A program made the translations under genes and the position numbers. A stretch of 58,146 nt of DNA from a virus (lineage: Duplodnaviria; Caudoviricetes). The notes under the pieces were generated by a model. It saw nothing but the letters and a program-made list of their open reading frames with translations, was not told the DNA's origin and searched no databases. Where the stretch lies: IMG/VR virus record IMGVR_UViG_3300022920_000008, positions 1 through 58,146 of that record; one strand, written 5' to 3'. Shown here piece by piece: positions 8,195 through 58,125 of the stretch (position 1 is the first letter of the stretch; every line of letters begins with the position of its first letter).

Positions 8195-8667
8195 TTTTTA
8201 GTCCAGGTCTCGATATATAACGTACTGTCGTGTACTTCACTTAACTTAAAATCGTTAAGTATTTTATTCTCTGGTAGGAATGTGTCACAGTTATATGTAC
8301 CTTCAATCCTACTTAAATGTATCTCGTCAATAATATCCCATAGGCCATCAATTAACCTAGCACCGCCAATAATCCATACGTTTTGTGTATTGGTCGTCAT
8401 CTGTGGCAATATTTTTAGTAAACCATCAATGTCTACAACAATATTACCAAGAGCGTTTTCAATAGGCTGTGTGGTTACAATAGCATTGGTCCTACCAGGC
8501 AGCGGCTTTCGTGGTAAACTTTCCCAAGTTTTACGACCCATAACAACTACATCGCCGGTAGTAGATTCTTTAAACCATGCTAGATCATCCAAATTCTTGG
8601 GCCAAGGCAAGTCACCGTCTTTACCAATGCCCCAGGCTTGATCACATGCCAGTATTGCTTTTATCAT
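8191..8667 (-). CDS. folA: dihydrofolate reductase
   Basis: GIGKDGDLPW, VVMGRKTWESL, PLPGR, IIGG, CDTF. Confidence 0.95.
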   Translation of the reverse strand: MIKAILACDQAWGIGKDGDLPWPKNLDDLAWFKESTTGDVVVMGRKTWESLPRKPLPGRTNAIVTTQPIENALGNIVVDIDGLLKILPQMTTNTQNVWIIGGARLIDGLWDIIDEIHLSRIEGTYNCDTFLPENKILNDFKLSEVHDSTLYIETWTKK

Positions 8668-22400: not shown

Positions 22401-25400
22401 CTAATGGTTCATAAAATAAGAATTCTTGCCTATGGTTACTATATCCATCTACAATATATCCACTGTCTGTTTTTTTAATTTTGATATCACTTACCAACAA
22501 TAATAGTTCAGGTAACCCGCCTGCCATTGTTATTTGATAATCTCTAACACCCAAAGTATATCTTCCGTTTGTTCCACTTTCAGATTTAATCTTAATTAAA
22601 TTCTTATCTGTAAATCCATTAAGTGGCTGTAGTAAGCGGGTGCTTAATGAATTAAACGTTGATCCAATAACTTCGCTATTTCTATTTCTTTGGTTAGAAT
22701 TATATAATACTTGGTCAATACCAAGGTTATACTTAAAGTTTTCTCTAAGTGTTACACTAAATCCTATTGATGGCCAAACTTTAAATCCTTCAGCACTTAC
22801 TGGAGGTGTATATGAATCAGGATAAACAAGTGTTACATTTGGTGTGCTTGTATAGCCACTGCCTGCTCGTATAACAGACAAGCTTAAAATATTACCATTG
22901 CTGTCTAAATTAATGTCAGCTAACGCCGTTACTTTTTCATCTGTTCCAATAATACTAACACGAGTACCTTCTGGAATTTGTCCAGTTTGGTGTGTTACTT
23001 TAATATTTTGTACTTGCTTGCCATATGTACTGCCGTGATATGTAAGTCTCTTGTTTGAGAATTGAGTTTTATCTAAGTTATTAATCATACTTAAATCAAC
23101 AGTTTGTGTATCATGGAAGTAACCAGGCTGGAATACTGCTGGCGCAGTTCTTGCTGGGTTAAGTTTTATTACTGCATCAATCGTTGCTGCTTGACCTAGT
23201 GGTGATTGTCTCCACTCGTACTCAGTTGGTCCCCAGTCACCAAATACAAATGGTTTATATTTTTCTAATGGCGTACCTAATACTGTGCTTATTTCTTCTA
23301 GAGTTCCATCTGCTTTAACTGGACATTTAGAAGCCCAATCCCAACTACTACGCATAAACATTAATCTTTGTTTAACAGGCGTACCTGGCTCACTAATAAT
23401 ACCGTACTCTAATGCATTTAGTAATGCTGCACGTTTTATACTATCAGTCCAACTGTAATGTGTATTCCACCAGGTTGGCTTAATAGCAAATCCTAACATA
23501 TTCCAAGGAGTAAGGTGCGGGATACATGTACCAAATAACATATGGTAAATACCTTTCCAATGCCCTGGTGCTTCTTGTTCTTCAAACTTTCCTGGTAAAA
23601 CTATGCCAGTGTAATTCCAAGTTTTATCATCGGTTGGATCGTAATAATTCTCTGATTGTAAATCTGTATTTCCAGTTTTTGTTTGCCAATCCATAAAGAA
23701 TCTTTCAACATATTCGTCCATAGTAGTATGTGTATACCATAATGAATGATTCATTGTTGGCATAAAATGCGTTGCGTCAGTTAAGTGATCTACTTTTTTA
23801 TTGATGCCGTTCCAAACTTTCTTTTCAATATCATACAGTACAGCAAGTACTGGATTATAGTTTGGACCAAAAATATCATCTGGGTCATTTGTAGATGCAT
23901 CACTAAAATCAATAGTATAACCATCGTGACAATATAGTACATTATCAATAATTTGTGGACGTACTAAATTTGCAAGACCTAATTTTGTAATACTTGCAGG
24001 AATATAACTATCTTCTAGGCTTCCATGATTATATACTTCCACTCGAACATTTGTATCACCACTTGTGAATGGAACAAAAGAAGCATTAACTGTCAGCATA
24101 CCATTTGATATTGTATACTCATCATCACGCTTTAGCAAACGCTGTATACCATTATTATTTCCAATTGCATTGTCTATAAGATAAACATTAATATGATCCA
24201 CGCTAAATGTATCTTCATCATAATTAAACTTAGTTATAAAACTTTGTCCAACTGTATCATATATAAAGTCTTGTTTAACTGTAGTATCTTTAAATAACAT
24301 ACTTGATTTTTTATGCAGTTGGCTACCAATTTGTCCACTAATTAAAACGTCCAACACATCATTAACTAGCGCACGGGTGCTAGTATAACTGTTTGTCTTG
24401 TATAGTTTTTTTGCATGCGATACTACTCTTTTGCGTAAACTCCACCATTCAGTTGCTTGGTTTTTTAGTGCTTCTGTTAAATCAATATTATAGTCTACAG
24501 TAGTGTAGTCTTGTATAATGCTTGCCCCGTCACTAATATAAATTTCGCCACCAATGTTATTAATTTTAGGAATGATATCGTAATTATTTTTACCAGTTGG
24601 AGATCCGTGGAACCCAGGTTGATTTGCAATTAAACTTTTCCAGTGTGCTGATGTTTCACTAATAGTAAACTCAATAATTCTTTCATTACTTGGATTGTGA
24701 TTTAAAATTCTTGGCTGTGTAGTTACACTATTGTTATCCACATACTGAACATCAATAATAAACTCATCGCCTTCTCCTAATTGATCTGCTTTAATTACAA
24801 TTTGATCATCTTGTCTTTCAACAATATCTACATTGGTGCTGTCAATTAAAACTTTATCAGCCAGGTCTAATTGTTGTCCATTTGAATAAACTTTTAAGTG
24901 TGTGCTATCAATAATATCTTTACTAGCACTGATAATTTTATTTTTTCTGGTGCCATCTGTATAGAACATTACATATCCAGTATCATCTGGCAATGTAACT
25001 TCCCAAACATTGGGGCGTGAAGGGTGAGGAGCAAATGTAGCTTGACTACCTGGATCGATAAAACTCAAACTTTGATCTGGACTACAATCTTTAAATTCAT
25101 GAGTAACGTTTTGTTCTAACATTAGGGTTGCAGTAACTTGTGTGTTATAAGTTTTATTGTTAATTACTTTTGTTACGGCTAGTTCATCTAAAGCTTTAAA
25201 GTAGTCATAATAAACATCAGGCTTCCAAGATGATTTTGGAAGAGGGACAACGATATCTTCTGTTCCATTTCCAACAACTTGTACTTTACTTGATGACTGT
25301 AATGGGAAGTCACTAGCTACATAGTTTGCAGCTATACGTTCACCTCGACCATAGTTTGCATAATAGTTTCCTAGTATTTTAGTTTCAGTATTATTTTGCT

Positions 25401-30429: not shown

Positions 30430-30987
30430 TTATAGACCTTTAGGCGGGACGATATGGAGAAGATGTTCTGGCCAATCCAAGTATTGTTGCCAATTATGAT
30501 CAGGAATTTTAAGATCATATGTTTTTGCTAGGTTATTGATACTAAACCAGCTTGGGCGTGTGGGCGCTTTTTTAGGCTTAACAAGCTTATGCCCTTTATC
30601 TGTATTACATTTTTGGCAACTTGCTACTGTGTTGAGCCATGTATTTGCTCCACCTAGTACACGTGGTACAACATGGTCAATTGTTAGCTCACTATAACTA
30701 AATTGCTTTTCGCAATACTGACAATGGAAGTTGTCTCTAATAAACAAATTTTTTCTAGTAAATTTTGCTGATTTAGGTTGACGTTGGAATCTGTTCAACA
30801 TAATAACACTAGGACACGGCATCTCAAAATTTGCACTATGTAGTACAATATCTGGATAGTTGTGTAATATTTTTACTTTGTCTGAGAAATATGACTTAAC
30901 CGCTGTTTGCCAACCTATTGTACTAAGTGGCAGATAACTAACTGGTTGTGCATCTGCGTTTAGTAACAGTACTTGCTGACTGGGCAT
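30430..30987 (-). CDS. HNH endonuclease (McrA-like)
   Basis: RDNFHCQYC...LTIDHVVPR..GG...W.N.VASCQKCN..KG. Confidence 0.9.
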   Translation of the reverse strand: MPSQQVLLLNADAQPVSYLPLSTIGWQTAVKSYFSDKVKILHNYPDIVLHSANFEMPCPSVIMLNRFQRQPKSAKFTRKNLFIRDNFHCQYCEKQFSYSELTIDHVVPRVLGGANTWLNTVASCQKCNTDKGHKLVKPKKAPTRPSWFSINNLAKTYDLKIPDHNWQQYLDWPEHLLHIVPPKGL

Positions 30988-30990: not shown

Positions 30991-31731
30991 TTATTGATTC
31001 CGTAAATTATAGAGGTCGACGATTTGTCTCATTCTTGATTGAGTTAGACCTGGTAAGAATTTACGCTGGTCAACGTAGTAAATATATTCACATTGCTGTT
31101 TTGCAATAGGGTCTTTTTGACGTGGATACTCTCCACGTATTAGGTTAATACCTTTAGACTGTAGCATACTTCTTGGTGTATGTCTACCATAATTACCTAA
31201 CATCATTATTTTTGCTTCGCTTTGGGTGCGTAAACGATCTTTTCCATTATTGATTAATGCAGTAGCTACATAATCCCAGTTGCGTTCTAATATATATGGT
31301 TTTAAGTCAAATTTAACAATTTCTGATCCAACTTTATCCCAAGCGCCTGTAAAAAAGTACAAACTTACCATAGCATCATACTGTGTTTGTGTTAGCGTGT
31401 CAAGTGGAAAAAACTTTTTAAATGCACGTTCTTTGTTTTTAAAATTGTCAATCCAATATCCATAAGCTTCTGATTCTTCTAGTGCAACTGGATTGTTTAA
31501 TTTTTCTGTTAAGCCATATCCAATTTGCAACTGTTTTGTTTTTTTGTTTTTGTTTTTATACGGTATGTAAGGAGTTTGACGTAATGCAAAATTAATCAAC
31601 AAGTCACTAGTTTCTAAATCACTTAGCGGAATCAAAGTATTACTAATGTTAGCTTCAACTTTAGGAAAAATTGTAAAGTCAATAAGCATATCGCTTGTTA
31701 CTTTTGAGGGTCTAACTACGTACTGTGGCAT
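30991..31731 (-). CDS. phage lysozyme (GH24)-like protein, catalytic residues degenerate
   Basis: QIGYG and LTQTQYDAMVSLYF match GH24 TIGYG and LTQNQFDALVSF; immediately after gp5. Confidence 0.5.
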   Translation of the reverse strand: MPQYVVRPSKVTSDMLIDFTIFPKVEANISNTLIPLSDLETSDLLINFALRQTPYIPYKNKNKKTKQLQIGYGLTEKLNNPVALEESEAYGYWIDNFKNKERAFKKFFPLDTLTQTQYDAMVSLYFFTGAWDKVGSEIVKFDLKPYILERNWDYVATALINNGKDRLRTQSEAKIMMLGNYGRHTPRSMLQSKGINLIRGEYPRQKDPIAKQQCEYIYYVDQRKFLPGLTQSRMRQIVDLYNLRNQ

Positions 31732-32918
31732 TATTGTTGTTTACCTTCACCAGTTGTAAATGCTTCTTGGACACCTGGAACACCATTCCATGGATGTCGT
31801 TCTGGAACACGACCAGCAGCACTCTGTGTAACTCCACTATTTTCAACTAATCCGTTGGGTGTTGGTTTAGTTGCAGAATCTGCGGCGGCTCCACTATTAG
31901 TATTAATTGTTGGTGCTGTCATTTTAATTTGGGCAGAACTTTTACCACTAAGGCTTCCAGTTGCTTCAATATTAGTTGTGCCTGTTGAATGTGTATCAAT
32001 ATTTCCGTCTGTGGCTGCTTTAATTCCATCAGCACCAGCTTGTATGTTTATACCTTGATCAGCTTGCATATTAATATTACCCTGTGCGTGAAAATTTATA
32101 TCTTCACCACTTGCTATACTAAAACTATTATCGCTATAGATATCAATTTGCCCTTCAGCGTTCATTTCAATATGTGTACTGCCGCCTTGATTTGTTATGA
32201 ATACAATACCAGTGCTGTCATCAATTAATACTTGCCCGCCACCTGGTGTTTTTATTCTCATATTTTGACTACCTGCACCATCTGCAGCCCCGTCATCCAT
32301 TGTTATACTTGCTCCACCTGGTGTTGTAATTCCCATAACTTTACTTGGGCTTTCACGTCTAGCACTTGACATACTGTGTCCGCGAACATAGTCTTGATCT
32401 AAACCTTGATCATTTAATGTTTCAGCTCTCTCTGTATTTCCTGGCTTACTATACGGGTCACTTGTGTCATTTGGATTTTGTTCTGCCACTGGTGCAATTT
32501 CGCCATCTTTTGTTTCAGCACTTGCATTGCCACCTAAATTGTGGTTGGTTGGTGCGGTAATAAGTCCGCCCATAAGAACTGGATTGCGCATGCCTGGATT
32601 AAATTGTACTAATACAGTTGTACCAGGTGCTGGAGGTTGCATCCACATACCAAAGCTTTTAGCAGTACCTGCAGGATCAGACACGTCATCGTTCAATCCC
32701 ACATTAGTGGCACCGCCCATTGGTGTCATCATTAATGCACTAAATTCAGCATCACTTTCAAACTCACCAATTTTAACAGTTACACGTCCAGTATTAGTTG
32801 TATCAACATTGTCAACAACTTGAGCAACATACATTCCGTCAGGTGATACATTATTGTTTCCTAGTCTATTACTTGCGTCAGGGCTTGTTGTACCACGTGT
32901 TCTACTATTTCCACTCAT
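31731..32918 (-). CDS. gp5: baseplate hub central spike gp5/VgrG-like
   Basis: AQVVDNVD....GRV.V OB-fold, SFGMWMQPP..GT.VLV.F, SSARRESPS, beta-helix repeats, RVPERHPW. Confidence 0.8.
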   Translation of the reverse strand: MSGNSRTRGTTSPDASNRLGNNNVSPDGMYVAQVVDNVDTTNTGRVTVKIGEFESDAEFSALMMTPMGGATNVGLNDDVSDPAGTAKSFGMWMQPPAPGTTVLVQFNPGMRNPVLMGGLITAPTNHNLGGNASAETKDGEIAPVAEQNPNDTSDPYSKPGNTERAETLNDQGLDQDYVRGHSMSSARRESPSKVMGITTPGGASITMDDGAADGAGSQNMRIKTPGGGQVLIDDSTGIVFITNQGGSTHIEMNAEGQIDIYSDNSFSIASGEDINFHAQGNINMQADQGINIQAGADGIKAATDGNIDTHSTGTTNIEATGSLSGKSSAQIKMTAPTINTNSGAAADSATKPTPNGLVENSGVTQSAAGRVPERHPWNGVPGVQEAFTTGEGKQQ

Positions 32919-39980: not shown

Positions 39981-40272
39981 GGACAAAAAGTATATATACG
40001 AAAGTCCTGATGGCGGTAAAACCCTAACTCGTCGACTTATCGGCGATACAACCAAAGAAATATTATCTAAATCAGTTGACATCGACATTAGCGATGTTAT
40101 ACTAATAGAACATGTAAAAAACATTAGAAGTAAACAAGACGCTCTTTTTGAAGATGATTTGTTTACAGACTTTGAAGGTTGGGAAATATTGCCCAACTTA
40201 CATGATCCACAGGTAAAAAGACTATTAGGTACCGATGTACTGCAGCAATTGAAAAAAGCACTTGGCGAATAA
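39970..40272 (+). CDS. hypothetical phage protein
   Basis: YIYESPDGGKT motif; probable TTG start at 39970 overlapping the gp46 stop. Confidence 0.6.
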   Translation: MTHKDKKYIYESPDGGKTLTRRLIGDTTKEILSKSVDIDISDVILIEHVKNIRSKQDALFEDDLFTDFEGWEILPNLHDPQVKRLLGTDVLQQLKKALGE

Positions 40273-40744
40273 AAAACAAATTGATTTGTCAGGTTGGACG
40301 TACAAAGGAAAACCAGTTACAGAACTACCAGAAGATTGCGCTGGTTTTGTATACTTAATAACGAATACTACAAACAGCAGAATGTATGTTGGGAAAAAAC
40401 TAGCTAAGTTTTCTAAAACAAGATACAAGATGCACACACAAAAAAATGGCAAAAAAGTAAAAAAGAAAATCAAATCAAAAGTTGACTCAGATTGGCAGAC
40501 ATATTTTGGAAGTTCAAAATTGCTAACTGAAGATATTACTAATATAGGCACAACACAATTCAAAAGAGAAATACTATATTACTGTAGTAGCAAAGGCGAA
40601 TGCTCCTACGTTGAGGCACGAGAACAATTCGAAAGAAAAGTTTTAGAAACAGATGAGTACTACAATGGACATATTCAAGTCCGTGTGCATGGCTCCCATA
40701 TACTAACAGAAAATCTTATTAAAAACTCTCAAAGACACTCTTAA
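40262..40744 (+). CDS. stand-alone GIY-YIG endonuclease (T4 EndoII/Seg-like catalytic domain)
   Basis: GFVYLITN...MYVGKK, YFGSS, F.REIL, YVEAREQF, YYN; no appended DNA-binding domain. Confidence 0.85.
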   Translation: MANKKQIDLSGWTYKGKPVTELPEDCAGFVYLITNTTNSRMYVGKKLAKFSKTRYKMHTQKNGKKVKKKIKSKVDSDWQTYFGSSKLLTEDITNIGTTQFKREILYYCSSKGECSYVEAREQFERKVLETDEYYNGHIQVRVHGSHILTENLIKNSQRHS

Positions 40745-41878: not shown

Positions 41879-42118
41879 TTATCTTCTTGACGCCGCCGCT
41901 GCTTTAGCATTTTGGTCTTCTCTTATTGCGTTCAGCCTTGATACAAAAAGTTCAATAGCTGGAACCGGCATACATAATACGTCTTGATAGTTTATTGCCC
42001 CTCCACTATTTAGAACAATATCTATATAGCTAGATTCAAGAGATTTTAATTGATTATTATATCTCTCAATCACTGCTTCAAGCTGTTCGGGCTGACTAGT
42101 GGCAATCAGCCCGCGAAA
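41879..42118 (-). CDS. gp51-like hub assembly protein, probably the -1 frameshift extension of the gp26-like gene
   Basis: The frame is open from the slippery site at 42118 to the stop at 41879; its own GTG (42073) lacks a good RBS; gp26-gp51 synteny. Confidence 0.6.
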   Translation of the reverse strand, partial: FRGLIATSQPEQLEAVIERYNNQLKSLESSYIDIVLNSGGAINYQDVLCMPVPAIELFVSRLNAIREDQNAKAAAASRR

Positions 42119-42936
42119 AAATTTGCAACATCCAAATCAATTTTTGTCTTCCATTCATGCGAACAGTGCTGGCAGTTTGCTGTCAAATTAGTATCAATGC
42201 AATCATCGCTAACTGCATCAACAGTACTTCTCAACATATCATAATCATCTTTTGTAATGCTTTGTAACCATTCTTTGATTATAACCTGGTCTGTGATTTC
42301 TTCGCCTTCTGGTGGCCTAACTGCGTATATGCAATTTGAAATTAAATCAACTGTTAAATTGGCAAGCTCAATAAAAGTTTTACCAAATTGTTCACTACGT
42401 TGCTCTTCAGTTAAATCACTAGCAGTTAATGATTGAATCATTTTCTGTTGTTTAACTTGTTGAATTTGCAATAGCGTACGGTCTTTTAAACTGTAAGGCT
42501 TAACATGTATTGTGAAATTATTTTCAAGTACCAATTTATCACTAACTTGATTCTGTGATACTGTTGATAGCAAACGATTTGAATCAACAGCAAGCATATT
42601 AAGTTCTTGACAAGCTGGGCATTTGATATCAACACTAAGTTCACTACCATGTGTTGCTTGTCTGATACCAAGTAATACCACCAACAAATCATTAACTGGC
42701 ATTTGCTCTGGGTCAATTACATCAGGACAACAACTACGCAACACAGCAAAGGTAGCTTCGCCGTTGAATAACGCATCTGGTGTTTTATAAAGCAATTCGT
42801 CTCTGGCAGTCATGGCATATACTGCCAATTCACCATCAACACTTAGTTTTGGTTTGTCTGTATAATATTTGCCGCCGCTGGGTAAGCTGACGTATAATGC
42901 TGGCTTTCTATAAGCCGCTACTAATGGGTTTGTCAT
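42106..42936 (-). CDS. gp26: baseplate hub assembly chaperone gp26-like
   Basis: NPL...R.P..Y..LPSGG.YY, MTARDE...KTPDAL.NG, CPAC and CQHC, C-terminal NFF. Confidence 0.8.
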   Translation of the reverse strand: MTNPLVAAYRKPALYVSLPSGGKYYTDKPKLSVDGELAVYAMTARDELLYKTPDALFNGEATFAVLRSCCPDVIDPEQMPVNDLLVVLLGIRQATHGSELSVDIKCPACQELNMLAVDSNRLLSTVSQNQVSDKLVLENNFTIHVKPYSLKDRTLLQIQQVKQQKMIQSLTASDLTEEQRSEQFGKTFIELANLTVDLISNCIYAVRPPEGEEITDQVIIKEWLQSITKDDYDMLRSTVDAVSDDCIDTNLTANCQHCSHEWKTKIDLDVANFFAG

Positions 42937-43013: not shown

Positions 43014-45899
43014 GTGAATTTTGAGAAAGAATTTCAAAAAATAAATGCAAAATACCCTTGGCTAAAAGAAGCTACTTTATATAATGCAGTAGAAGTAATC
43101 GGTAATGATATAAAAGCTGATACCAAACTACAAGAACAATTTAATAAAAACAAGCCAGATCCACAAAAATTTGATAATGTAACCAAGTCTTTAATGAAAG
43201 ATCTAGTATCAAAAGGTAATCAGCAGGCCAAACGACTAAAATCTGCAACACGAGCAGCCTTAATGATAGGAAGAAGTTCTTCTCCAATATCAAGTACTGC
43301 TACACTAGTCCAAAGTGCTGGGTTAGCAGCTAACAGATTAGGTAACGGTGTTGCAAATTCATCAAGAACTGGTTTGTTAGGTGACGTTGGCGGTGGATCA
43401 ATAGCAGCATTTGGTATAGGTGCCGCAGCATATTCCGGCGCCATGATTATGTATGGCAAGCTAATGGAAGAACAAGAAAAAGCATCACGTGCAATGATCA
43501 ATCAAGGTTTGCTTGTTACTGACGTTGACCTGTTTACCCGTATGAAAAATACGTTTGCAGAAGCAGGTATGTCTTTAAATGAGGGAATGGAATCATTAGG
43601 TGATTTAATACCAACATTTGCTAACTTGGGAGATAGCTCAGCAAAAGTAATTACTGATTTTATTCAAGGTCTTGACACTGCATTAGATTCTGATGTAATT
43701 CATAAATTTGGACAACGAAGAAACGTAGTAGTTAGACAAGTATCTGAAACATTAACTTCACTTCGTAACATTAATAGTATAGATGATTTAAACCAAATGT
43801 CAATGAACAAAGTTTTAGATCGTTACGAATCAAATGCTAGAATTATATTTGGTGTCAGTCAACTAATGGGCGTTACTGCTGATTCAGAAAGATCTAGCCG
43901 AATGGAAGCCAGCAACAATATTAATTTTATTGTAGCAATGAGAAATAGTCAAGCAGCCATTATTGATAGATTGGGAGAAATTGGGTATGACAATTTACAG
44001 CAAGCACAATCTAGTTTTGTATCTGGACTAAATTATTTAGGTAACGAGTTTAGCACACTAGCAAGTAATGCACTCAATAGAGCAGTTTATGATTATGATA
44101 CAGACACAAACTTCCGTAACAATATTGATACTGAATTAAATGAAGTACTAAATCTATTAGGTCCATCAGCTAGACAAAGTTTCATAGATTTAGGACAGCA
44201 GCTTCTAGATGGTGAGCTATTTGGAATTGAGCTAGAAATTGCAAAGCGTGACTTCTTTAATACTGTTCGTAACTCATCTGACAGTCCAATTGCAAATGCA
44301 CAATTTCAAATTCCAGATGGGGAAATAGATATAGCCAGAGAAGTGTATAATAGAAGCTTTTTAATTGGTGATGAATTTATGAATGCTACTGACTTAGAAT
44401 TGGTTGAGTTAGCTGCTGCCGGCGCTGCCCTTACTGATAATGCTGACGATGCATTAGTAGTTGTTGACACTTTGGCAATTGCATTACGTAAAGTGTATAA
44501 TTTAATGACTCCTGGCTTTGCTACAACTGGGCAAGCTATGAGTTATTTCAATGATAATTTACAAAGATTAGTAGGCGGTACTGATAGTCTTTTAACTGCA
44601 TTAGAAACAACGTTCAGTGTAGAAAGAGAAGGTCCTCCATCTGTAGGCAGTCGTGGAAGAAATCAAAGAAGGGGCGATCGTGCTGGTACAACATCTACAG
44701 GCGATTCGACATCACCAGGCTCTCCAACACCATCTGTAGGCAGTCGTGGAAGAAATCAAAGAAGGGGCGATCGTGCTGGTACAACATCTACAGGCGATTC
44801 GACATCACCAAGGTCGCCAGGCAACAGCAACTCTACAATCGTTGGCGGCGTAACATTATATCAAGGTGGAGAGTACGGCGTTAATACTACTGAGGGTAGG
44901 TCGGTGTTATTAGATATGTCAGGCGGTGGTGCAAGTAATATGGTTCGAGATGGTGCTCAGGAAAATTTAGATAGATTGCTCAGTGGACCTTATGCAAGGA
45001 TGCAGGAATATTATGGCGGTCCATTAAGCATTAATGATGCCATTGCAAAACACGGAACCTCCCGTGAAGACACCACACCAAACAGTCAACACTTTTTTGG
45101 AAATGCTCTTGACATAGGCACACATAACATGAGCAATGAAGACAAAGCTAGGATAGTACACGCAGCATTGAGAGCAGGGTTTACAGGATTTGGATTTGGC
45201 GCTGGTATTTTGCACGTTGACGTAGGAAGAGCAAGAAGTTGGAGTTATAATAATTCTCATTATGGTGGGTTGCCAGTTAGCGATTGGCAATCGTTTGTTG
45301 CTGGCAATGCAGTTGCAGCTATACAAGAAGTTGAATTGCAAGGATTGCAAAGTGAGTTTGCATCAGAATCTCAAGATCAACCAACAGATGAAACTTCAGA
45401 TGTAATTCCAGATAATCCAGACTCAGTTGAACCAGGTTCTCCTACACAAGTTATAATACCGGAAGGTAATGGCCCGCCATTATCTGAATCACAAGACTCA
45501 GAAGAGCTTAGTACACTTGATACGTCAGATATTAATTTACGACAAATAGCAAGCGCAAGAGATGATCTTTATGCCGAATATTGGAATCCAGATACCTCTA
45601 CATCAAGAATACTAGAAATAGAACGCAGTTTAGGACGTATTGAATCTGAATACGGAGATCATATTAGTGGCATGGGCTTTGACATAACACCAGGAACTGG
45701 ACAGCAAAGTTATCACCTGTTAGACGAACGTTTACAGGAACGTTATGAAGAATCATTAAACAATAATGATACTGAAACTATTAGTATAATAAATTCACGC
45801 ATACAGGATGAAATTGATAGAGCTAATATTACTCGTACTGCATGGCAATCAATATTTGATGCTGGTGCTAATAGTCGAAGAATAAGCGAGACAGTATAA
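43014..45899 (+). CDS. tape-measure-like protein 1 with peptidase M15-like domain
   Basis: Long helical Ala/Leu-rich N-terminal half; SQHFFGNALDI...GFTGFGFG...LHVDVG (H, D, H Zn ligands of the M15/LAS fold). Confidence 0.65.
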   Translation: MNFEKEFQKINAKYPWLKEATLYNAVEVIGNDIKADTKLQEQFNKNKPDPQKFDNVTKSLMKDLVSKGNQQAKRLKSATRAALMIGRSSSPISSTATLVQSAGLAANRLGNGVANSSRTGLLGDVGGGSIAAFGIGAAAYSGAMIMYGKLMEEQEKASRAMINQGLLVTDVDLFTRMKNTFAEAGMSLNEGMESLGDLIPTFANLGDSSAKVITDFIQGLDTALDSDVIHKFGQRRNVVVRQVSETLTSLRNINSIDDLNQMSMNKVLDRYESNARIIFGVSQLMGVTADSERSSRMEASNNINFIVAMRNSQAAIIDRLGEIGYDNLQQAQSSFVSGLNYLGNEFSTLASNALNRAVYDYDTDTNFRNNIDTELNEVLNLLGPSARQSFIDLGQQLLDGELFGIELEIAKRDFFNTVRNSSDSPIANAQFQIPDGEIDIAREVYNRSFLIGDEFMNATDLELVELAAAGAALTDNADDALVVVDTLAIALRKVYNLMTPGFATTGQAMSYFNDNLQRLVGGTDSLLTALETTFSVEREGPPSVGSRGRNQRRGDRAGTTSTGDSTSPGSPTPSVGSRGRNQRRGDRAGTTSTGDSTSPRSPGNSNSTIVGGVTLYQGGEYGVNTTEGRSVLLDMSGGGASNMVRDGAQENLDRLLSGPYARMQEYYGGPLSINDAIAKHGTSREDTTPNSQHFFGNALDIGTHNMSNEDKARIVHAALRAGFTGFGFGAGILHVDVGRARSWSYNNSHYGGLPVSDWQSFVAGNAVAAIQEVELQGLQSEFASESQDQPTDETSDVIPDNPDSVEPGSPTQVIIPEGNGPPLSESQDSEELSTLDTSDINLRQIASARDDLYAEYWNPDTSTSRILEIERSLGRIESEYGDHISGMGFDITPGTGQQSYHLLDERLQERYEESLNNNDTETISIINSRIQDEIDRANITRTAWQSIFDAGANSRRISETV
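44637..44810 (+). repeat. 81-bp perfect direct repeat (44637-44717 and 44730-44810, period 93)
   Basis: Identical copies encoding PSVGSRGRNQRRGDRAGTTSTGDSTSP. Confidence 0.95.
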
Positions 45900-48793
45900 T
45901 GATGGACATTGAAAATTGGATTAACCAGATAGTTCAAACTTACCCGTGGGCTAGTGAAGACACTATGTTGGTAGCATTTGGAGAACAAACTAGATCAAAT
46001 TTAACAGCTAGACAGGCAGTTGCTAAACTTAGGAATGATCCTGCCAGTTGGCAAAGCATTGTTGATGAGATTAAAAAGAATACTGACAGATCTTCTACAT
46101 TTAATAGGTACACAAAAGAGTTATCTCAATCAAGCAGTGCAATAATTAAATCGATGGCCAGGGATGATAGTATAAATGCTATTAACGAATTAGCATATAA
46201 TTTTTCTAAAGGTTTAGATGGAATTGCCAATGCCGCAGACGAGTTAACTGATAGTGCCAGATGGCTATCAATGGCGTCAACAGGAAGATTTGGAAACCTA
46301 GTAAGAGCAGTTGAAACTGGAGTTGATTTTTTAAATGTTGGAGCCAATACTGTTATTGGTACAGTTGCTATTGGTGGTATTGCATTAAAGTTTATACAAG
46401 ATCAAGAAAAAGCATTACGTACAATGATTGACTTTGGTATATTATCTAATGACTTATCAGTGTTTAATGAAATTAGAGATAATGCTGCTTCATTAGGAAT
46501 GACTCAACAAGACTTTATTAAAGAGTTTAGTGATTTTGGACCAATATTTACAAACATGACTACCAATGCTGCTGATGGATATCAGCAATTTACAGACATG
46601 ACAGCCGCAATAAAGCAAACTGACACATTTAGTACATATGGTATAATGCTACGTGATTATGCCAAACAGATTGCAGAAAATACCAAGCTTGCATATAATT
46701 TAAGTCAGATGACCGAGTTTAACGAAAACACAAAAGCACAGTTAGCTGAAACATTTAAAACTAATAGTACATTTGCATTATCAATGGCAAACGCAACAGG
46801 AGAAAAAAGAGATGATCTTTTATCTGCCCGTAAAGATGCACTTAGTGGAATTGAGTTAATAGCCGCAATGGATCAAAACTTTGCATATATTACTGAGCAG
46901 TTTGGAGAAAACGGTGCAAGAAATATAACAGAAAATATTGGCTTTTTGAGAATGTTAATGGCACCATTGCCAGATGATTTTGCTGACGAAAGTATAGACA
47001 TTATTACTCGTTCACTTTACGATGTGCAATTTGATGGTGGCAACATACTTAATAATATAAGTGACGATATGTTAAAAATGTTAACAGCATTAGGCCCTGA
47101 TGTCAAGAACCAATATCTTGAAATGATGCAAACGATAGTGCAAGGTGGATATGATGCATCTGATCCTGGTCAAATAACAAATGACTATTTGGACTTGATG
47201 CAATCTATCAAAGCTACTGACCCAGTAACAGTTACATATTTAGAGGTAAAACCTGAACAAGTAAATGCTAGAATGATACAAGACATTGTAAGAATATTAC
47301 CAGAATCAGCTTTTAGTAGAAACTTAACACTCGTTAATTTAAATGAAGCTACAACTGATACTGCTGCAACTTTAGCAGGACAAGCTGTGGCTGCAATTAG
47401 TAGCATTGGTGTTTTTACTGCTACAATTAAAAATGGTATACTTCCTGAATATGATACTACTGCAAATGCTATTAATAATTTTGGCACTGGTCTTGCATTT
47501 TTAGAGAATGCCATGGACGTAATAGACATGTCAGGAAGAAGAGATGAAGTAATTGATTTAGATAGTGGCGCAGAAAACCGTGCGGCTATGATGGAACAAC
47601 GTGAAAGCATGTTACGTGATTTAGAGTCAGTTAGGACTGTTGAAGAATTCAATGCTGTTTTAGATTCACATAATTTACCAGGATTATCAGGCGGCTCAAT
47701 TAATATGCCAGCTAGTGATATCAGCCATTTATTTGGTAGGGGTGAGACAACTGATAGCTCTGGACGTCCATCAGCAAGTTCAGAAGTAGTGGCGGCAAGG
47801 TTGATTGCAGCATTAGATGACTTTGGAATTACTAACCCGCAAGCCCAAGCTAACGTACTTGGTATGGTAAGTGGAGAAAGTGGATTTAGATTATTAGAAG
47901 AAACTAGTTACAGAAATACAGATGTATCAAGAATTAGAGAAGTTATGGCATCAAGAGCACAGTTTTATACTGACGCAGAAATAGAACAACTTAAAACAGA
48001 TGATCGTGCATTCTTTGATGCAATGTATGGTACTGAACAGAGTAATAGACGACAACAGGCAAGAGATGCTGGATTATCCAGGGCAGATACTGGCGGCAGT
48101 ATTAGTCCTCAATTTATCAGAGGAGGCGATATGGGAGGTTATGATTATCGCGGACGTGGGTACATTCAATTAACTGGTAGAGAAAATTATAGAAGAGTTG
48201 GTGAAATGGTAGGAGTTGATCTTGTTGAAAACCCAGACTTGGTAGTTGATCCATATTGGGCACCTAGAGTTGCAGCCGCATTCTATGCAATTAAAAGTCA
48301 AAGTGAACGATCAAAAATGACGGATGCTCGAGAAGTATATAGAATGACATGGGGGGCATATCCTGATACTGCTACAAAAATAGCTGATGCGCAAAATAGA
48401 GCTGGTATTGGTGCAGCGTTTTTACTAAGAATTCAATCAGGCGAAATGGCAAATATCGATACTTCGTTATCTCAAGCAGAACAAGATTATGTCAATCAAA
48501 CAAGAGGCGACGGAGAACTACAACAACAACATGCAGAGTTAACTGATCAATTTATGCTAGAGGGTCTTGGTACAGGCCGCCAAGCTGGAGATATTCCAGT
48601 ACTTGAAGAACTCACAAATCCAACTAGCATAAATACAGATACTAATGACTCTGAATCAACTATTCCTGATGTGTCATCTCTTTGGACTACTCCAGTGCTT
48701 AACGATGAAGAAACTCAACAGGCAATACGAGAGATACAAGAATACTTAGCAACAGCGCAGAACAGACAGGTAACAACAGGAAATGTCAGATAA
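45899..48793 (+). CDS. tape-measure-like protein 2 with GH19-like lytic domain
   Basis: Helical N-terminal half; GESGF...EE and YRGRGYIQLTGRENY...G.DLV.NPDLV. Confidence 0.7.
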   Translation: MMDIENWINQIVQTYPWASEDTMLVAFGEQTRSNLTARQAVAKLRNDPASWQSIVDEIKKNTDRSSTFNRYTKELSQSSSAIIKSMARDDSINAINELAYNFSKGLDGIANAADELTDSARWLSMASTGRFGNLVRAVETGVDFLNVGANTVIGTVAIGGIALKFIQDQEKALRTMIDFGILSNDLSVFNEIRDNAASLGMTQQDFIKEFSDFGPIFTNMTTNAADGYQQFTDMTAAIKQTDTFSTYGIMLRDYAKQIAENTKLAYNLSQMTEFNENTKAQLAETFKTNSTFALSMANATGEKRDDLLSARKDALSGIELIAAMDQNFAYITEQFGENGARNITENIGFLRMLMAPLPDDFADESIDIITRSLYDVQFDGGNILNNISDDMLKMLTALGPDVKNQYLEMMQTIVQGGYDASDPGQITNDYLDLMQSIKATDPVTVTYLEVKPEQVNARMIQDIVRILPESAFSRNLTLVNLNEATTDTAATLAGQAVAAISSIGVFTATIKNGILPEYDTTANAINNFGTGLAFLENAMDVIDMSGRRDEVIDLDSGAENRAAMMEQRESMLRDLESVRTVEEFNAVLDSHNLPGLSGGSINMPASDISHLFGRGETTDSSGRPSASSEVVAARLIAALDDFGITNPQAQANVLGMVSGESGFRLLEETSYRNTDVSRIREVMASRAQFYTDAEIEQLKTDDRAFFDAMYGTEQSNRRQQARDAGLSRADTGGSISPQFIRGGDMGGYDYRGRGYIQLTGRENYRRVGEMVGVDLVENPDLVVDPYWAPRVAAAFYAIKSQSERSKMTDAREVYRMTWGAYPDTATKIADAQNRAGIGAAFLLRIQSGEMANIDTSLSQAEQDYVNQTRGDGELQQQHAELTDQFMLEGLGTGRQAGDIPVLEELTNPTSINTDTNDSESTIPDVSSLWTTPVLNDEETQQAIREIQEYLATAQNRQVTTGNVR

Positions 48794-51476
48794 AGTATAT
48801 AATTTAACGCTACCAGATGGCACTACAATACCAGTACCTGCTTGGGCTCGTGAAGCTACCTTATCTGTTTTAGTTGAGCAATTAAAAATTGGAAGTTCAC
48901 TAAACAAGTCTTTAATAAAAGAAGTAACTGATTTAAATTTAGATACTGATGAAATTGAAGACAGTATTCAAGATATGTTTAATAGTCTTGAAACTGTAAA
49001 ATTACAAGAGAGTGAAGACGAGAAAAAAGCCAGAGCTGGCTTTGCCAAAGGAATTGCAAAAGCTACTAATGATGTTGTTGACTCTTTAAGTGACACAAGT
49101 CAACCATTAACTACTATGACTAAAAATGCAGAGTTAGCTGCAGGATGGTTAGGCAAAGGCGGCGGGCAATGGCTGAGAAATTCTACAGCATTAGCAGAAA
49201 CATTTGAGGGCGCTGGAGACTTTATAGCAGGCGCCGCAGATGGATTAGGTGATGCATTTTTTGCATATGCTGGTTTTGTAGCAGGACAATTAGAGTCATT
49301 TGCAAAAGCACAAACAAATATGATTAATGCAGGTGCTATATTCTTTGACGCAAGTGTTTCATTTGATGATCTAAGAGAATCTGCCGCGGCGTCGGGCATT
49401 ACTTATAATCAGTTAAGTGAAATTGCAATGCAATATGGTACAGGATTGCAAGTTTTAGGTCGAGGTGTTTCGGGCGGTGTTACAGAATTTTTAAATACAT
49501 TCAAAGATCTACAAGAAACTTCAGAAGCATTTGGCGACTTTGGTATGTCAAACGAACAACTTGCCGCAGGGTTTGCTGAGTTTATCGAAGTGTCACGTTT
49601 AACTGGTTTAGTTAATAACAAGACTCAAGACGCATCTGGTGTCCTAGAACAAGGATACACAAACTTATTGCAAGAAACTACTGCATTAGCTGCATTAACA
49701 GGTAAAAGCAGAGACCAACTATTAGCTGAACAAAATGAAGCATTGAAGAATCCAACAACTGCCGCAGCATTAATTAGAATGGAAGAACGTGGGTTTGGTG
49801 ATGAAGCTGAAGTAATCACTAGTATTGTTAGACAGTTAGCAAACACTGCTGAATACTTACCAGCTGGTGTTTCAGACATGATACAATTAGCAATTGGTAC
49901 TGCATATGGCGAACTTGAAGCAGGTGAAAATATCAGTAATGTTGATTTACGAGCGGCACTACGTGCCGCTGATCCAAGTGGTAGTGTGTCTACAATACTA
50001 AACAGTTCTGGTATTGATATTATGGAAAAGATACAAACTGCGGTAGCAAATGGTTCAACACCAGATGATATAAGATCATTTATATATGAAGAAATCGCAG
50101 CTATAGATGAAGGCATTGATGCAGACATTCGAATGAATACAGGCACCTTGAGTGACTATGCAGCAATGGTACTGGAGTTTAGAACCAAAAGTATATTGGC
50201 AGACAAAGATTTTGCTACATTGTTACGTGGTACTGAGGAAGAGCGTAACGCAGTTTATGCTGATATGCAACGACAGTTGGCAACATCAGGAACGGCAACA
50301 CTTGCATTGAATGATTTAACTAAACTATTTTTACAAGCACAATCCAAACTAACTCCAGATTTAGATAAATCTGCAGCATATGCAAGATCAATTGCTGGTG
50401 GTATGGAACATATTGCTAACTTATTAAACGGCCAAACAGGCGCAGATAATGATAGTGGTATTGGCGGTGGTCTTAATCCACTTGTAAATGCTCAAATAAC
50501 AACTGAACAACGAGATCAACAATTAAATGACGGACTTGAAAATGGAACTATACCTGAAAACTATGAAGATCCTATAGGCGATGCTCCAGTTTTAGAATTC
50601 GACCAGGCAATCATGGACGAATTTTTAGGTATGATGACACAATCAGGTGGAACTCCTGATAGCTTTACTGATATCATTCACGGTGAAGTAATGCGAATGC
50701 CACATCCTGTAAACCGTGGGGTAACTGCGTTTATGAAAATGAGAGAATTTGGTGGTACAGTTACACCAGCAGCTAACAATCACGGGTATGTTGTTGGTGA
50801 AGCAGGACCAGAATATTTTGAACCAACCGGCGATGGAAAAATTATACCGTTTAGCGAAATGACATCAATAATTGAAACAAGTGCCCGTGCTATCGATGCG
50901 TTTACGTCAGCAGTTGGAAAAATCGACTTATCATCAATATCTGATTTTACACAAACTACATTACAATCATTAGCAGGAAAAATGGTTGAAAATATAATGA
51001 CTGAAGTTGACACTGTAGATACAGCATCTTTGGGTGCATTTGGTGGACAAGGTTCGATGGTGATCGATGGTATTGGCATTAACGAACTATTAGGTGATCT
51101 AAACATACCTAACAGTGCATTAGATTTACAAGCACAATTTGAATCTGGCGTTGGATTAGATGTATTTGGTGGAAGTGATACGCCTGTAACACCTGCAACT
51201 GTAACAAAAACTGAAAATAGCCAACCAATTAATGAGCTAAATACAAGCACGGTAGGTACAGTATCTAATACTTCAAATAATCAAATTGTACAAAATGTAC
51301 CTCCAGCCCCAAATCAAACAAACAATAATTCAAATTCTCCAGATTTTGAAGAATTTAAAACAAAAATGCAAGAATTGGCAAGCGTAAAAGAAACATATAG
51401 TAGTGTAATTATGGCTTTACGTGACGAAGTTAGAAAATATCAAAGAATTAATGATACTGGGAGAACTTTCGGTTGA
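48783..51476 (+). CDS. tape-measure-like protein 3
   Basis: LAALTGKSRDQL helical repeats; REFGGTV...YVVGEAGPEYF.P...GKIIP motif typical of tape-measure C-termini. Confidence 0.7.
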   Translation: MSDKVYNLTLPDGTTIPVPAWAREATLSVLVEQLKIGSSLNKSLIKEVTDLNLDTDEIEDSIQDMFNSLETVKLQESEDEKKARAGFAKGIAKATNDVVDSLSDTSQPLTTMTKNAELAAGWLGKGGGQWLRNSTALAETFEGAGDFIAGAADGLGDAFFAYAGFVAGQLESFAKAQTNMINAGAIFFDASVSFDDLRESAAASGITYNQLSEIAMQYGTGLQVLGRGVSGGVTEFLNTFKDLQETSEAFGDFGMSNEQLAAGFAEFIEVSRLTGLVNNKTQDASGVLEQGYTNLLQETTALAALTGKSRDQLLAEQNEALKNPTTAAALIRMEERGFGDEAEVITSIVRQLANTAEYLPAGVSDMIQLAIGTAYGELEAGENISNVDLRAALRAADPSGSVSTILNSSGIDIMEKIQTAVANGSTPDDIRSFIYEEIAAIDEGIDADIRMNTGTLSDYAAMVLEFRTKSILADKDFATLLRGTEEERNAVYADMQRQLATSGTATLALNDLTKLFLQAQSKLTPDLDKSAAYARSIAGGMEHIANLLNGQTGADNDSGIGGGLNPLVNAQITTEQRDQQLNDGLENGTIPENYEDPIGDAPVLEFDQAIMDEFLGMMTQSGGTPDSFTDIIHGEVMRMPHPVNRGVTAFMKMREFGGTVTPAANNHGYVVGEAGPEYFEPTGDGKIIPFSEMTSIIETSARAIDAFTSAVGKIDLSSISDFTQTTLQSLAGKMVENIMTEVDTVDTASLGAFGGQGSMVIDGIGINELLGDLNIPNSALDLQAQFESGVGLDVFGGSDTPVTPATVTKTENSQPINELNTSTVGTVSNTSNNQIVQNVPPAPNQTNNNSNSPDFEEFKTKMQELASVKETYSSVIMALRDEVRKYQRINDTGRTFG

Positions 51477-51515: not shown

Positions 51516-53186
51516 ATGAGCTGGAAAAAACATTTCACAAAGTACGAACCTTCTACAGGAAATGGTCGTACAAAAGCCAATAGATGGCAGTCCTGGTTAC
51601 CAGAAGTATATTCTGGTATGCCAAATCGTGTTGAGCGATATACTCAGTATGACCAAATGGATCAAGATAGTGAAATTAACGCAGCACTAGATACAATTGC
51701 TGAATTTAGTACGCAATCAGAATCACAAAGCAAACTACCATTTTCAATTAATTACAAAGATGAAATGACAGAAAGTGAAATTTCTGCTATCAATACAACA
51801 CTAAAACAGTGGTGTAATATTAATGATTTTGAACGCAGAATGTTTGGTGTGTTTAGATCTACTATTAAATATGGAGATCACTTTTTTATTCGTGATCCAG
51901 AAACATTTAAACTAATTTGGGTTAACCCAGCAGATATTAGCAAAGCAATTGTAAACGAAAGTACTGGTAAGGAAATTGATCAGTATATTGTAAAAAATAT
52001 CGCACTAAATTTAAATGACATGGTTACTACTGATACCCGTAAATTAAACAACATGGGTATCAATAACACTACTGGCGGAATAACAGGTGCAGCACAAAAT
52101 ACAAGTACAGGCACATATCAAGGTGGTATGAATTCAAATAACACAGAGTTTGCAGTTGATTCAGCACACGTTGTTCATATTAGTTTAACAGACGGAATGA
52201 ATGCAAGTTGGCCATTTGGTAACAGTATCCTTGACAGTGTATTCAAAGTATACAAACAAAAAGAATTATTAGAAGATAGTATTATTATCTATCGTGTACA
52301 AAGAGCTCCAGAACGCCGTGCATTTTATGTTGATGTAGGTAATATGCCAGCACATAAAGCACAGGCATTTGTTGAGCGTGTTAAAAACGAAGTACACCAA
52401 ACTCGCATACCTACAAAAAATGGCGGCGGCGCAAGCGTAATGGATGCAAGTTACAATCCTTTATCAATCATGGAAGATTACTTCTTTGCACAAACTGCTG
52501 AAGGACGTGGATCAAAAGTCGAAGTATTGCCAGGCGGCGACAACTTAGGTGAGATTGACGACTTAAAATACTTTAACAATAAGTTAATGCGTGGCTTACG
52601 TATTCCTTCAAGTTACTTGCCAACAGGACCTGACGATGGCACAGCAACTTATCAAGACGGTAGAGTAGGCACTGCCTTAATTCAAGAATTTAGATTTAGT
52701 AAGTATTGTGAGCGGTTACAGTTAATCTTACAACCAACATTAGATTATGAATTTAAACTATTCATGAAACACAAAGGTATCAATATTCCAGGAAACTTAT
52801 TTGATCTAGACTTTGTAGAACCACAAAGCTTTAGTCAGTATAGAGAAATTGAAATTGATAGTTCAAGAGCGCAGTTATTTGGCAACTTGGACGGTGTACA
52901 ATATCTAAGTAAACAATTTATCTTACAGAAATATTTAGGTTTAAGTCAAGACGAAATCAAAGAAAACGAAGCCCTGTGGAAGAAAGAAAATTCTTCAGAC
53001 AGTTCACCAGATTTAAATAACCAAGGAGACTTGGGATCATTGGGTGTTAGAGGCGGCGATATTGAAAGTTTCGAACCAACTGATTTAGACGACGATGGCG
53101 CAGATGGCGGAGTAGACGATTTAGATGTTGAAAACCCTGATAGCCCAATTAGCGGTGCAGAGGGGGGCAGCGACGATGAGATTTAA
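51516..53186 (+). CDS. gp20: portal protein gp20-like
   Basis: MD.DSEI.AALD, LLEDSIIIYRVQRAPERRAFYVDVGNMP..KA, MEDYFF...EGRGS.VE.LPGG.NLGEIDDL.YF. Confidence 0.95.
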   Translation: MSWKKHFTKYEPSTGNGRTKANRWQSWLPEVYSGMPNRVERYTQYDQMDQDSEINAALDTIAEFSTQSESQSKLPFSINYKDEMTESEISAINTTLKQWCNINDFERRMFGVFRSTIKYGDHFFIRDPETFKLIWVNPADISKAIVNESTGKEIDQYIVKNIALNLNDMVTTDTRKLNNMGINNTTGGITGAAQNTSTGTYQGGMNSNNTEFAVDSAHVVHISLTDGMNASWPFGNSILDSVFKVYKQKELLEDSIIIYRVQRAPERRAFYVDVGNMPAHKAQAFVERVKNEVHQTRIPTKNGGGASVMDASYNPLSIMEDYFFAQTAEGRGSKVEVLPGGDNLGEIDDLKYFNNKLMRGLRIPSSYLPTGPDDGTATYQDGRVGTALIQEFRFSKYCERLQLILQPTLDYEFKLFMKHKGINIPGNLFDLDFVEPQSFSQYREIEIDSSRAQLFGNLDGVQYLSKQFILQKYLGLSQDEIKENEALWKKENSSDSSPDLNNQGDLGSLGVRGGDIESFEPTDLDDDGADGGVDDLDVENPDSPISGAEGGSDDEI

Positions 53187-57798: not shown

Positions 57799-57872
57799 GA
57801 GGGTGTAGTGAAATGGTATCACGCTGGTCTCCAAAACCAGAAGCAGGAGTTCGATTCTCCTCACCTTTGCCA
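57799..57872 (+). tRNA. trnW: tRNA-Trp(CCA)
   Basis: Cloverleaf; anticodon arm CTGGT-ctCCAaa-ACCAG; GTTCGA T-loop; encoded CCA. Confidence 0.92.
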
Positions 57873-57882
57873 AATATAAAGC

Positions 57883-57958
57883 GGGCCGGTAGCTCAGTTG
57901 GTAGAGCAACTGACTTTTAATCAGTAGGTCTCGGGTTCGAACCCCGACCGGCTCACCA
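57883..57958 (+). tRNA. trnK: tRNA-Lys(TTT)
   Basis: Canonical 76-nt cloverleaf; ACTGA-ctTTTaa-TCAGT; CCA end. Confidence 0.96.
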
Positions 57959-57968
57959 CTATAATAAC

Positions 57969-58044
57969 ACTCCTCTAGCTCAATGGTTAGAGCAGAACGC
58001 TCATAACGTTTTGGTTACAGGTTCGAGTCTCTCCACCTATGCCA
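57969..58044 (+). pseudogene. chimeric/pseudo tRNA with CAT anticodon (Met/Ile2-type 5' part)
   Basis: D and anticodon arms are intact, but the T stem (ACAGG/CTCTC) and acceptor stem (ACTCCTC/CACCTAT) do not pair; still ends in GCCA. Confidence 0.75.
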
Positions 58045-58048
58045 ATTA

Positions 58049-58125
58049 CTCGGATTAGCGCAGTCTGGCAGCGCATCTGCTTTGGGAGCAGAGGGTCGTA
58101 GGTTCGAATCCTACATCCGAGACCA
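58049..58125 (+). tRNA. trnP: tRNA-Pro(TGG)
   Basis: CTCGGAT/ATCCGAG acceptor stem; TCTGC-ttTGGga-GCAGA; CCA end. Confidence 0.95.

Follow-up and report, generated by a model that had tools for sequence, protein, structure and literature searches.

The stretch of DNA analysed here (the window) is the whole of IMG/VR virus record IMGVR_UViG_3300022920_000008, 58,146 nucleotides (nt) of a tailed phage (Duplodnaviria; Caudoviricetes) with a CheckV completeness of 16%, and this analysis concerns three consecutive open reading frames (ORFs) in it, here called P1, P2 and P3, which probably belong to a tail tape-measure family. The three ORFs occupy a slot that runs from a divergent gp26-like baseplate hub gene to the portal gene, with the following layout (aa, amino acids; N-module, the shared N-terminal module):

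42106..42936, minus strand: gp26-like baseplate hub gene (T4_baseplate PF12322, E 6.3e-15; phrog_150 'baseplate hub', E 3e-18), divergent from P1–P3
43014..45899, plus strand: P1, 961 aa, GTG start; N-module from aa 1 to ~540, low-complexity linker with a 31-aa duplication, M15-like domain at ~645-750, acidic linker, C-terminal helix
44637..44810, plus strand: tandem duplication in the P1 linker, a perfect 93 bp repeat in 1.9 copies with 100% matches (Tandem Repeats Finder)
45899..48793, plus strand: P2, 964 aa; N-module, GH19 lysozyme-like domain at ~aa 630-880, C-terminal helix
48783..51476, plus strand: P3, 897 aa; N-module with its own LPDGTT..PAWA start, beta-rich GE.GPE segment at ~600-680, disordered Asn/Thr-rich stretch, C-terminal helix at 853-891
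51516..53186, plus strand: portal gene (gp20-like; phrog_213, E 2e-115), the downstream edge of the conserved slot

The P1 stop and the P2 start overlap by 1 nt and P2 and P3 overlap by 11 nt; a purine-rich stretch lies 5′ of the P1 GTG, and P1 orthologues have the same initial residues. Four occurrences of the T4 late promoter consensus TATAAATA were counted in the window against 8.2 expected, with 0 upstream of P1–P3, a count that is uninformative on transcription here. A first-pass annotation, made from the letters of this DNA and its ORF translations, had described three coupled ORFs of 961, 964 and 897 aa and read them as paralogues; the ORFs exist as it stated, all the motifs that it quoted are present in the translations, and the mutual homology on which its reading hung was recovered by BLASTP, with E values of 4e-27 for P1 against P2 (22% identity over 418 aa), 3e-5 for P1 against P3 and 1e-5 for P2 against P3, in pairwise alignments that are all collinear from the N-terminus. 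The part common to P1, P2 and P3 is the N-module of ~540 aa. When 20 family members from the window and seven related contigs are aligned over their N-terminal 540-560 aa, W21, G184, G205 and G254 are invariant and the sequences are collinear throughout, and the profile built from the module matched every copy in the related contigs over residues 1 to ~540 at E 1e-160 or better. The C-termini of all copies also follow one plan: in 24 of the 24 members inspected, a helix-like stretch of ~35-45 aa comes after a low-complexity linker and is followed by a short polar tail. For P3, an AlphaFold2 (AF2) model of low confidence (mean predicted local distance difference test score, pLDDT, of 46) is helical over residues 25-548, beta-rich over 600-680, disordered over 740-850 and helical again over 853-891.

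Between the common module and the common terminal helix the three proteins differ, and here the first-pass annotation had correctly picked out an M15-like, a GH19-like and a GE.GPE-bearing C-terminal part in P1, P2 and P3, respectively. Residues 661-736 of P1 match Peptidase_M15_3 (PF08291) at E 3.9e-4 and 21 bits, which is under the Pfam cut-off of 23.2 bits, and P1 matches phrog_17373 'peptidase' at E 1.2e-8. The residues H693, G696, A698, D700 and H734 do not vary among the 9 relatives aligned, and we take the His, Asp and His of the H..G.A.D and downstream H motifs to be the zinc ligands of an M15/LAS enzyme. In the AF2 model of P1 residues 600-809 the domain core has a pLDDT of 76-93, and a Foldseek search with the model places the Zn DD-peptidase 1LBU first (E 1.3e-3, probability 1.00), ahead of hedgehog N-domains, the RB49 L-alanoyl-D-glutamate peptidase and ChiX, all at E values above 0.001; a phmmer search of the P1 peptidase segment against Protein Data Bank (PDB) sequences gave nothing at E up to 1. 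Residues 747-805 of P2 match Glyco_hydro_19 (PF00182) at E 8.8e-8 and 32.7 bits, over the cut-off of 25.5 bits, and P2 further matches phrog_181 'endolysin' (E 5e-23), the GH19 endolysin 4OK7 (E 9e-14) and a total of 44 PDB sequences at E up to 1, mostly GH19 chitinases and endolysins. The P2 segment SGESG.FRLLEE aligns to GHESGGFTRLQE of 4OK7, so that GESG...LLEE of P2 stands for HESG...LQE; the glutamates of this motif are presumably the two catalytic glutamates of GH19, and the first of them is conserved in 7 of 7 P2-type sequences, those of the SLT type included. P1 is thus predicted to have a peptidoglycan hydrolase domain that cuts peptides and P2 one that cuts glycans, as the first-pass annotation had proposed; the former shows a sub-threshold M15_3 match, a PHROG match and Foldseek matches, the latter a GH19 match over the cut-off. 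P3 carries a GGTV...VVGEAGPE segment; its sole PHROG match is phrog_30701 (E 9e-4), and no match to any Pfam family was found for it. The corresponding GE.GPE segment in the last copy of a related locus (L010) matches phrog_1538 'tail length tape measure protein' at E 2.4e-4.

The window also encodes a gp55-like late sigma factor, gp47/gp46 nuclease subunits, a prohead protease, a scaffold protein and a gp23-like capsid protein besides the gp26-like hub and the portal, and its opposite strand encodes gp53-, gp5-, gp25- and gp6-like baseplate proteins together with a 3489-aa virion protein. The portal is 47-53% identical to the portals of the jumbo phages Phosso, PA5oct, Atu_ph07, XaC1 and GAP32. 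Because T4-type head and baseplate genes occur together with this portal identity, the window is, judging from its gene content, part of the genome of a jumbo myophage in the T4 superfamily, within the PA5oct/RaK2/Atu_ph07 group. When P1 and P3 were compared with phage records by tblastn, no match was found at E 1e-5, and the cultured relatives were then reached through the portal protein.

Scans of IMG/VR and metagenome contigs yielded 41 related loci, many of them redundant, whose ORFs were scored with the N-module profile and whose hub and portal genes were located by tblastn. The hub–portal slot is conserved in the 12 lineages that have both flanks. Seven of these carry three copies in the interval (the window together with its 98%-identical relative L037, L004, L005, L015, L024, L027 and L041) and five carry two (L008, L010, L012, L026/L030 and L046). 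Two complete copies follow the hub gene in L011 before the contig ends, and at least two are present in L031, L042 and L043, which are cut by the contig end. The gene junctions are tight at all related loci. A P3 with 99% identity to that of the window is also present on a public contig of 322 kb. A maximum-likelihood tree was built from 24 N-modules, with T4 gp29 left out and a midpoint root used for drawing only. One clade (support 100/99) unites every P1-type and P2-type copy with the upstream copies of the two-copy loci, and within it the P1 copies (99/98) and the P2 copies (98/99) are each monophyletic; the other clade (100/98) comprises all last copies, with the genes that cultured phages have in single copy placed beside it. 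Long branches lead to GAP32, PA5oct and both L011 copies. The branching order of the window, L004, L005 and L015 is identical inside the P1, P2 and P3 clades. Because of this clade structure and congruent branching, the tree indicates that a plain copy and an upstream copy arose in a first duplication, that the upstream copy gave rise to P1 and P2 in a second, and that all copies have since diverged in step with their genomes.

The lengths of the copies also vary together. Across 14 lineages, with lengths of 658-973 aa, the last copy and the one directly before it are correlated in length with a Pearson r of 0.88 and a Spearman coefficient of 0.89, values whose p-values are overstated because the lineages are related and the points are not independent; among the seven three-copy lineages, r is 0.79 for P1 against P3 and 0.78 for P1 against P2. 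Short sets (740/674/694, 737/742, 739/739 and 658/698 aa) and long sets (961/964/897 and 946/973 aa) are both found, and a copy that bears an enzyme usually exceeds the plain last copy of the same genome by 65-112 aa.

The cargo was then compared among the copies by Pfam and PHROGs. The first copy bears an M15_3-like domain in the window and L004 and a VanY domain (E 1e-22) in L024 and L027, where it also matches phrog_16823 'tape measure' at E 2e-22; in L015 an H..A.D motif is seen in the alignment, with null Pfam and PHROGs results, and no enzyme was found in the first copy of L005 and L041. The second copy bears a GH19 domain in the window and L004 and an SLT domain (E 1e-8) in L024 and L027, and it matches the endolysin-related PHROGs 30077/37890/90/1200 in L005 and L015; no enzyme was found in the second copy of L041. 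The last copy has no enzyme in any of the seven three-copy lineages. Among the loci with two or cut sets of copies, L012 has an endolysin-like domain in the upstream copy and a VanY-like domain in the last, L026 has M15_3 upstream and none detected in the last, L031 has an endolysin-like domain upstream with its last copy cut by the contig end, and L008, L010, L011 and L046 have none detected in either. A peptidase and a glycan cleaver are thus paired in four three-copy lineages by database matches (five with the L015 motif) and in L012, and the pair is made from different domain families in different lineages, M15 with GH19 in some and VanY with SLT in others. The locus L041 (positions 2805-9134) has three short copies (740, 674 and 694 aa) and no detectable enzyme domain, from which it follows that triplication is independent of cargo.

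The family extends well beyond these loci. Searched against 1.84 billion representative proteins, the N-module profile retrieved 1220 clusters at E up to 1e-3, 173 of them at E up to 1e-30. Among the best 150 of the 1220, the module is N-terminal in nearly all, and 79 favour the upstream-type model and 71 the last-copy model. A Pfam scan of 55 of these best 150 detected a wall-hydrolase domain in 11 and none in 44; the 11 comprise GH19 alone (5), GH19 with CHAP (1), CHAP alone (1), M15_3 (2), a sub-threshold M15_3 (1) and a VgrG3-like lysozyme (1).

That this family is the tail tape measure is likely, on the grounds of synteny, protein size, the detection of orthologues in virions, predicted helices and weak motif matches. 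In T4, gene 26 is opposite in strand to genes 51-27-28-29, and gene 29, for the tail-length determinator gp29 (PF25671), lies downstream of it, as P1–P3 lie downstream of the divergent hub gene of the window in the same kind of T4-superfamily virion module; in the window, however, genes 51, 27 and 28 are not found between the two. In PA5oct, Phosso, GAP32 and Atu_ph07 a single gene stands between the hub and the portal, beside the latter (PA5oct gp335, 798 aa; Phosso, 832 aa; GAP32_244, 720 aa; Atu_ph07 gp197, 845 aa). P3 matches PA5oct gp335 at E 3e-9 and the Phosso protein at E 2e-4, and the P3-type profile matches GAP32_244 at E 1.8e-5 and Atu_ph07 gp197 at E 8e-4; the N-module profile has a single match in GAP32 (3.3e-12) and a single one in Phosso (5.1e-9) and stays under threshold in PA5oct and Atu_ph07. 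These single-copy genes share with P1–P3 the N-module homology, the place beside the portal near the hub gene and the linker-plus-helix C-terminus. They differ from the window in being one copy per genome, in having no enzyme domain detected in PA5oct and Phosso or, by Pfam only, in GAP32 and Atu_ph07, and, for PA5oct, Phosso and Atu_ph07, in having strongly hydrophobic Gly-rich segments after the N-module, which P3 of the window lacks.

A ruler protein should be proportional in length to its tail, at ~1.5 Å per residue. T4 gp29, which like P1–P3 is long and largely helical, has 590 aa, and with a T4 tail of roughly 100 nm its ratio is similar to that of the cultured orthologues. The tails of Atu_ph07, RaK2 and the PA5oct relative MIJ3 are given as 136 nm (PMC6102473), 128 nm (PMC3622015) and 140 nm (PMC6892783), respectively, corresponding to 1.61 (845 aa), 1.78 (719 aa) and 1.75 (798 aa) Å per residue of the orthologue. 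The product is moreover present in virions: the PA5oct record of gp335 carries the note 'ESI-MS/MS', and the supplement of the Atu_ph07 paper (PMC6102473) lists gp197 among virion proteins at 87.3 kDa, with 15 peptides and 23% coverage. Several depositors have named the GAP32_244 orthologue 'putative tape measure protein' or 'tail length tape measure protein', and mostly it is called 'structural' or 'hypothetical'. In the ESM Atlas, the named clusters near P3 are PhageMin_Tail (PF10145) and TMP_3 (PF20155), at a score of 0.92, which we treat as a lead only.

A number of results weigh against this identity. The tape-measure families PF25671, PF10145, PF06791, PF20155 and PF23789 are unmatched by P1–P3 at E up to 0.1 and by P3 at E up to 5; GAP32_244 gives only chance-level rows against the curated families (PF23789, E 0.08; PF06791, E 1.7), and the P3-type profile gives only a chance row (E 0.65) against PDB sequences. 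Unlike the shared position and helical character, sequence similarity to T4 gp29 was not detected (hhalign, E 0.11). Foldseek of the full P3 model, which is poor, returned generic helical repeats only, at a best E of 0.04. The word 'tape' is absent from the PA5oct paper, the Atu_ph07 paper names another protein, gp701, as the tail tape measure (PMC6102473), and a second tape-measure gene may lie outside the window, which covers ~16% of the genome. These points would fit a family that is not the tape measure and instead is another portal-adjacent virion protein, for instance an ejection protein of the hub cavity or the head interior that has a conserved packaging module, with the true tape measure elsewhere. 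The absence of a significant match to Pfam and PHROG tape-measure families and of similarity to gp29 is what such a protein would give, and in the AF2 model residues 190-440 of P3 form a compact helical region of moderate confidence rather than a single long helix. We nevertheless regard this alternative as improbable. The T4_Tape_measure and PhageMin_Tail families of Pfam are absent from 4 of 4 complete relatives and 3 of 3 searched fragments, and a tape measure agrees with the slot, with the ratio of size to tail length and with the presence of the orthologues in virions. As for gp701 (L036, 482509-483126), by the paper's own table it is encoded by 618 nt and has a mass of 21.8 kDa; it is a Gly-rich protein of 205 aa and, at that size, is far too short for a 136-nm tail, for which gp197 is the better candidate. 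In the Atu_ph07 paper gp197 (L018:6426-8963) was left 'hypothetical'. Thus, of the tape-measure reading in the first-pass annotation, the support from synteny, size, virion orthologues and helical prediction stands, and a match to a curated tape-measure family is missing; its third, GE.GPE-bearing copy is indeed plain and groups with the single-copy gene at the tape-measure position.

If the family is the tape measure, three copies call for an account of how they are used. In the solved tails described in PMC11445458, the channel is filled by a tape-measure trimer, which has its C-terminal coiled coil in the baseplate core and is expelled at infection. P1, P2 and P3 appear to keep both tape-measure parts, the helical N-module of ~540 aa and a C-terminal helix that would anchor in the hub. 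The explanation that we find best overall, which we hold tentatively and which falls only a little short of probable, is that P1–P3 are tandem paralogues of a probable tape-measure gene that are all loaded in the tail and deliver two enzymes. P1, P2 and P3 would all be incorporated in one tail channel, in the simplest case as a mixed trimer, and would leave the tail on sheath contraction; in the periplasm the P1 Zn peptidase would cut peptide stems and the P2 lysozyme-like enzyme glycan strands, and the cell wall would be opened ahead of the DNA. Loading in the same channel is the simplest arrangement because the helical module and terminal helix are kept, the genes are coupled, and the copies have co-diverged with their lengths in step. 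That all three enter the tail channel as a mixed assembly is plausible, without reaching the level of the probable, and the dual delivery of enzymes is well motivated by the recurrent pairing seen at the sequence level; it is favoured because the peptidase and glycan-cleaver pair recurs with VanY and SLT.

A stricter form of this explanation, in which the tape measure is obligately mixed with one chain each of P1, P2 and P3, or with two chains of one copy and one of the other in two-copy lineages, seems rather unlikely. Under it the three-fold symmetric ruler would have turned into an asymmetric division of labour, one chain serving as ruler and hub anchor, one as peptidase and one as glycan cleaver, a picture that we consider doubtful, and the three lengths would be kept in step by the shared tube, which is likewise a possibility that we would not expect to hold. 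Several observations tell against mixed loading in general. Three genes for a trimer is not a general rule, because five lineages have two copies. Cargo delivery is not the whole reason for the extra copies, because L041, L046 and L011 keep three or two copies with no detectable enzyme. The length of P1 is not tightly fixed, because the 31-aa duplication in its Arg/Gly/Ser-rich linker has no counterpart in the 98%-identical L037, where the 93 bp are present in single copy (a 31-aa gap in the alignment); the duplication is either very recent or an assembly effect. Finally, the folded enzyme domains of P1 and P2 come about equally far along their chains (aa 630-880), where they would get in each other's way in a narrow channel or would have to stay unfolded.

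The last two of these points are also what would be expected if P3 alone were the length-setting tape measure, as a homotrimer, and P1 and P2 were tape-measure-derived virion enzymes that are ejected to digest the wall and do not set length; they could then stand in for one chain in a small share of the trimers, or be located in the hub or the neck. This alternative is a serious one, which on balance we judge unlikely. It agrees with the grouping of P3 with the single-copy genes of cultured phages, with P1 and P2 in a separate clade, and with the GE.GPE segment, weakly matching tape-measure PHROGs, being kept by P3 alone; the 31-aa length variation of P1 between 98%-identical relatives and the poor fit that folded enzyme domains would presumably find beside two other chains in the channel point the same way. 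It does not account for the retention of the whole 540-aa module and the C-terminal helix by P1 and P2 across deep divergence, for P1 and P2 lengths that track that of the last copy, or for the upstream copies of L041, L046 and L011, which are retained without a detectable enzyme. Each paralogue might instead form a homotrimer of its own, so that the progeny would be a mix of virions with a peptidase, a glycosidase or a plain tape measure. The solved tape measures described in PMC11445458 are homotrimers, and such a scheme would explain two-copy and three-copy lineages equally easily; but the recurrent pairing of a peptidase with a glycan cleaver suggests joint action in one infection, the 1-nt and 11-nt gene overlaps suggest joint synthesis, and virions without one of the activities would be at a disadvantage, and we consider separate homotrimers highly improbable.

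A tape measure is generally taken to be the product of one gene and a homotrimer, in some phages with a wall-cutting domain. The 12 lineages with both flanks, among them that of the window with its three paralogues, carry two or three and depart from the rule of one gene per phage. T4 has one gene 29, whose product has no enzyme domain, whereas the window has three genes, two of them enzyme-bearing. T5 pb2 and the tape measure of mycobacteriophage TM4 have built-in peptidoglycan hydrolase domains. With these and PHROG 16823, P1 and P2 share a wall-cutting domain in the C-terminal half of a long helical protein; there, however, one gene carries its enzyme or enzymes, whereas in the window the activities are split over paralogues that share a delivery module, and a third copy is plain. 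In the literature searched, no account of tandem tape-measure paralogues was found. A widespread uncultured jumbo T4-like lineage stably keeps two or three diverged copies of a probable tape-measure gene, with a swappable cargo of predicted M15, VanY, GH19, SLT, CHAP and VgrG3-like peptidoglycan hydrolases. If the copies do co-assemble, they would be the first mixed tape measure and a natural modular system for enzyme delivery through a contractile tail. The family also offers a testable tape-measure candidate for RaK2/PA5oct/Atu_ph07 phages, whose records mostly say 'hypothetical' or 'structural protein'.

In T4, the tail lysozyme is part of gp5. The window encodes, at 30991-32918 on the minus strand, a gp5-like spike (OB and DUF2345) without a lysozyme domain, followed by a distinct gene, of 246 aa, that matches Phage_lysozyme (GH24) at E 6e-6. 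Because this gp5-like spike lacks the lysozyme domain, the enzyme-bearing tape measures may take on part of the job of the gp5 lysozyme.

Other features of the window were recorded in passing. The 3489-aa ORF (16459-26928, minus strand) adjoins the gp6-like wedge gene and matches phrog_10938 'virion structural protein' at E 1e-167, and Atu_ph07 gp180 (4449 aa) is its counterpart in the same place. The giant ORF had raised the candidate of an N4-like podophage with a virion RNA polymerase, which is ruled out by the phrog_10938 match and the T4-type baseplate and head genes. Three radical-SAM genes, two of them with SPASM, a sulfotransferase-like gene and an unassigned ORF lie at 1293-6506 on the minus strand, and two radical-SAM genes are found in Atu_ph07 (L034) at the matching place upstream of the giant structural gene. 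On the minus strand at 7366-8194, two ORFs overlapping by 11 nt match the two halves (profile positions 2-115 and 123-228) of phrog_10255 'kinase', which looks like a split or frameshifted gene. An HNH homing-endonuclease-like gene (30430-30987, minus strand; phrog_16726, E 7e-31) stands between the gp25-like and lysozyme genes, and a SegE-type GIY-YIG gene (40262-40744, plus strand; PF19835, E 8e-33) lies within the structural region. Directly after the major capsid gene, at 57799-58125 on the plus strand, are tRNA genes for Trp-CCA, Lys-TTT and Pro-TGG.

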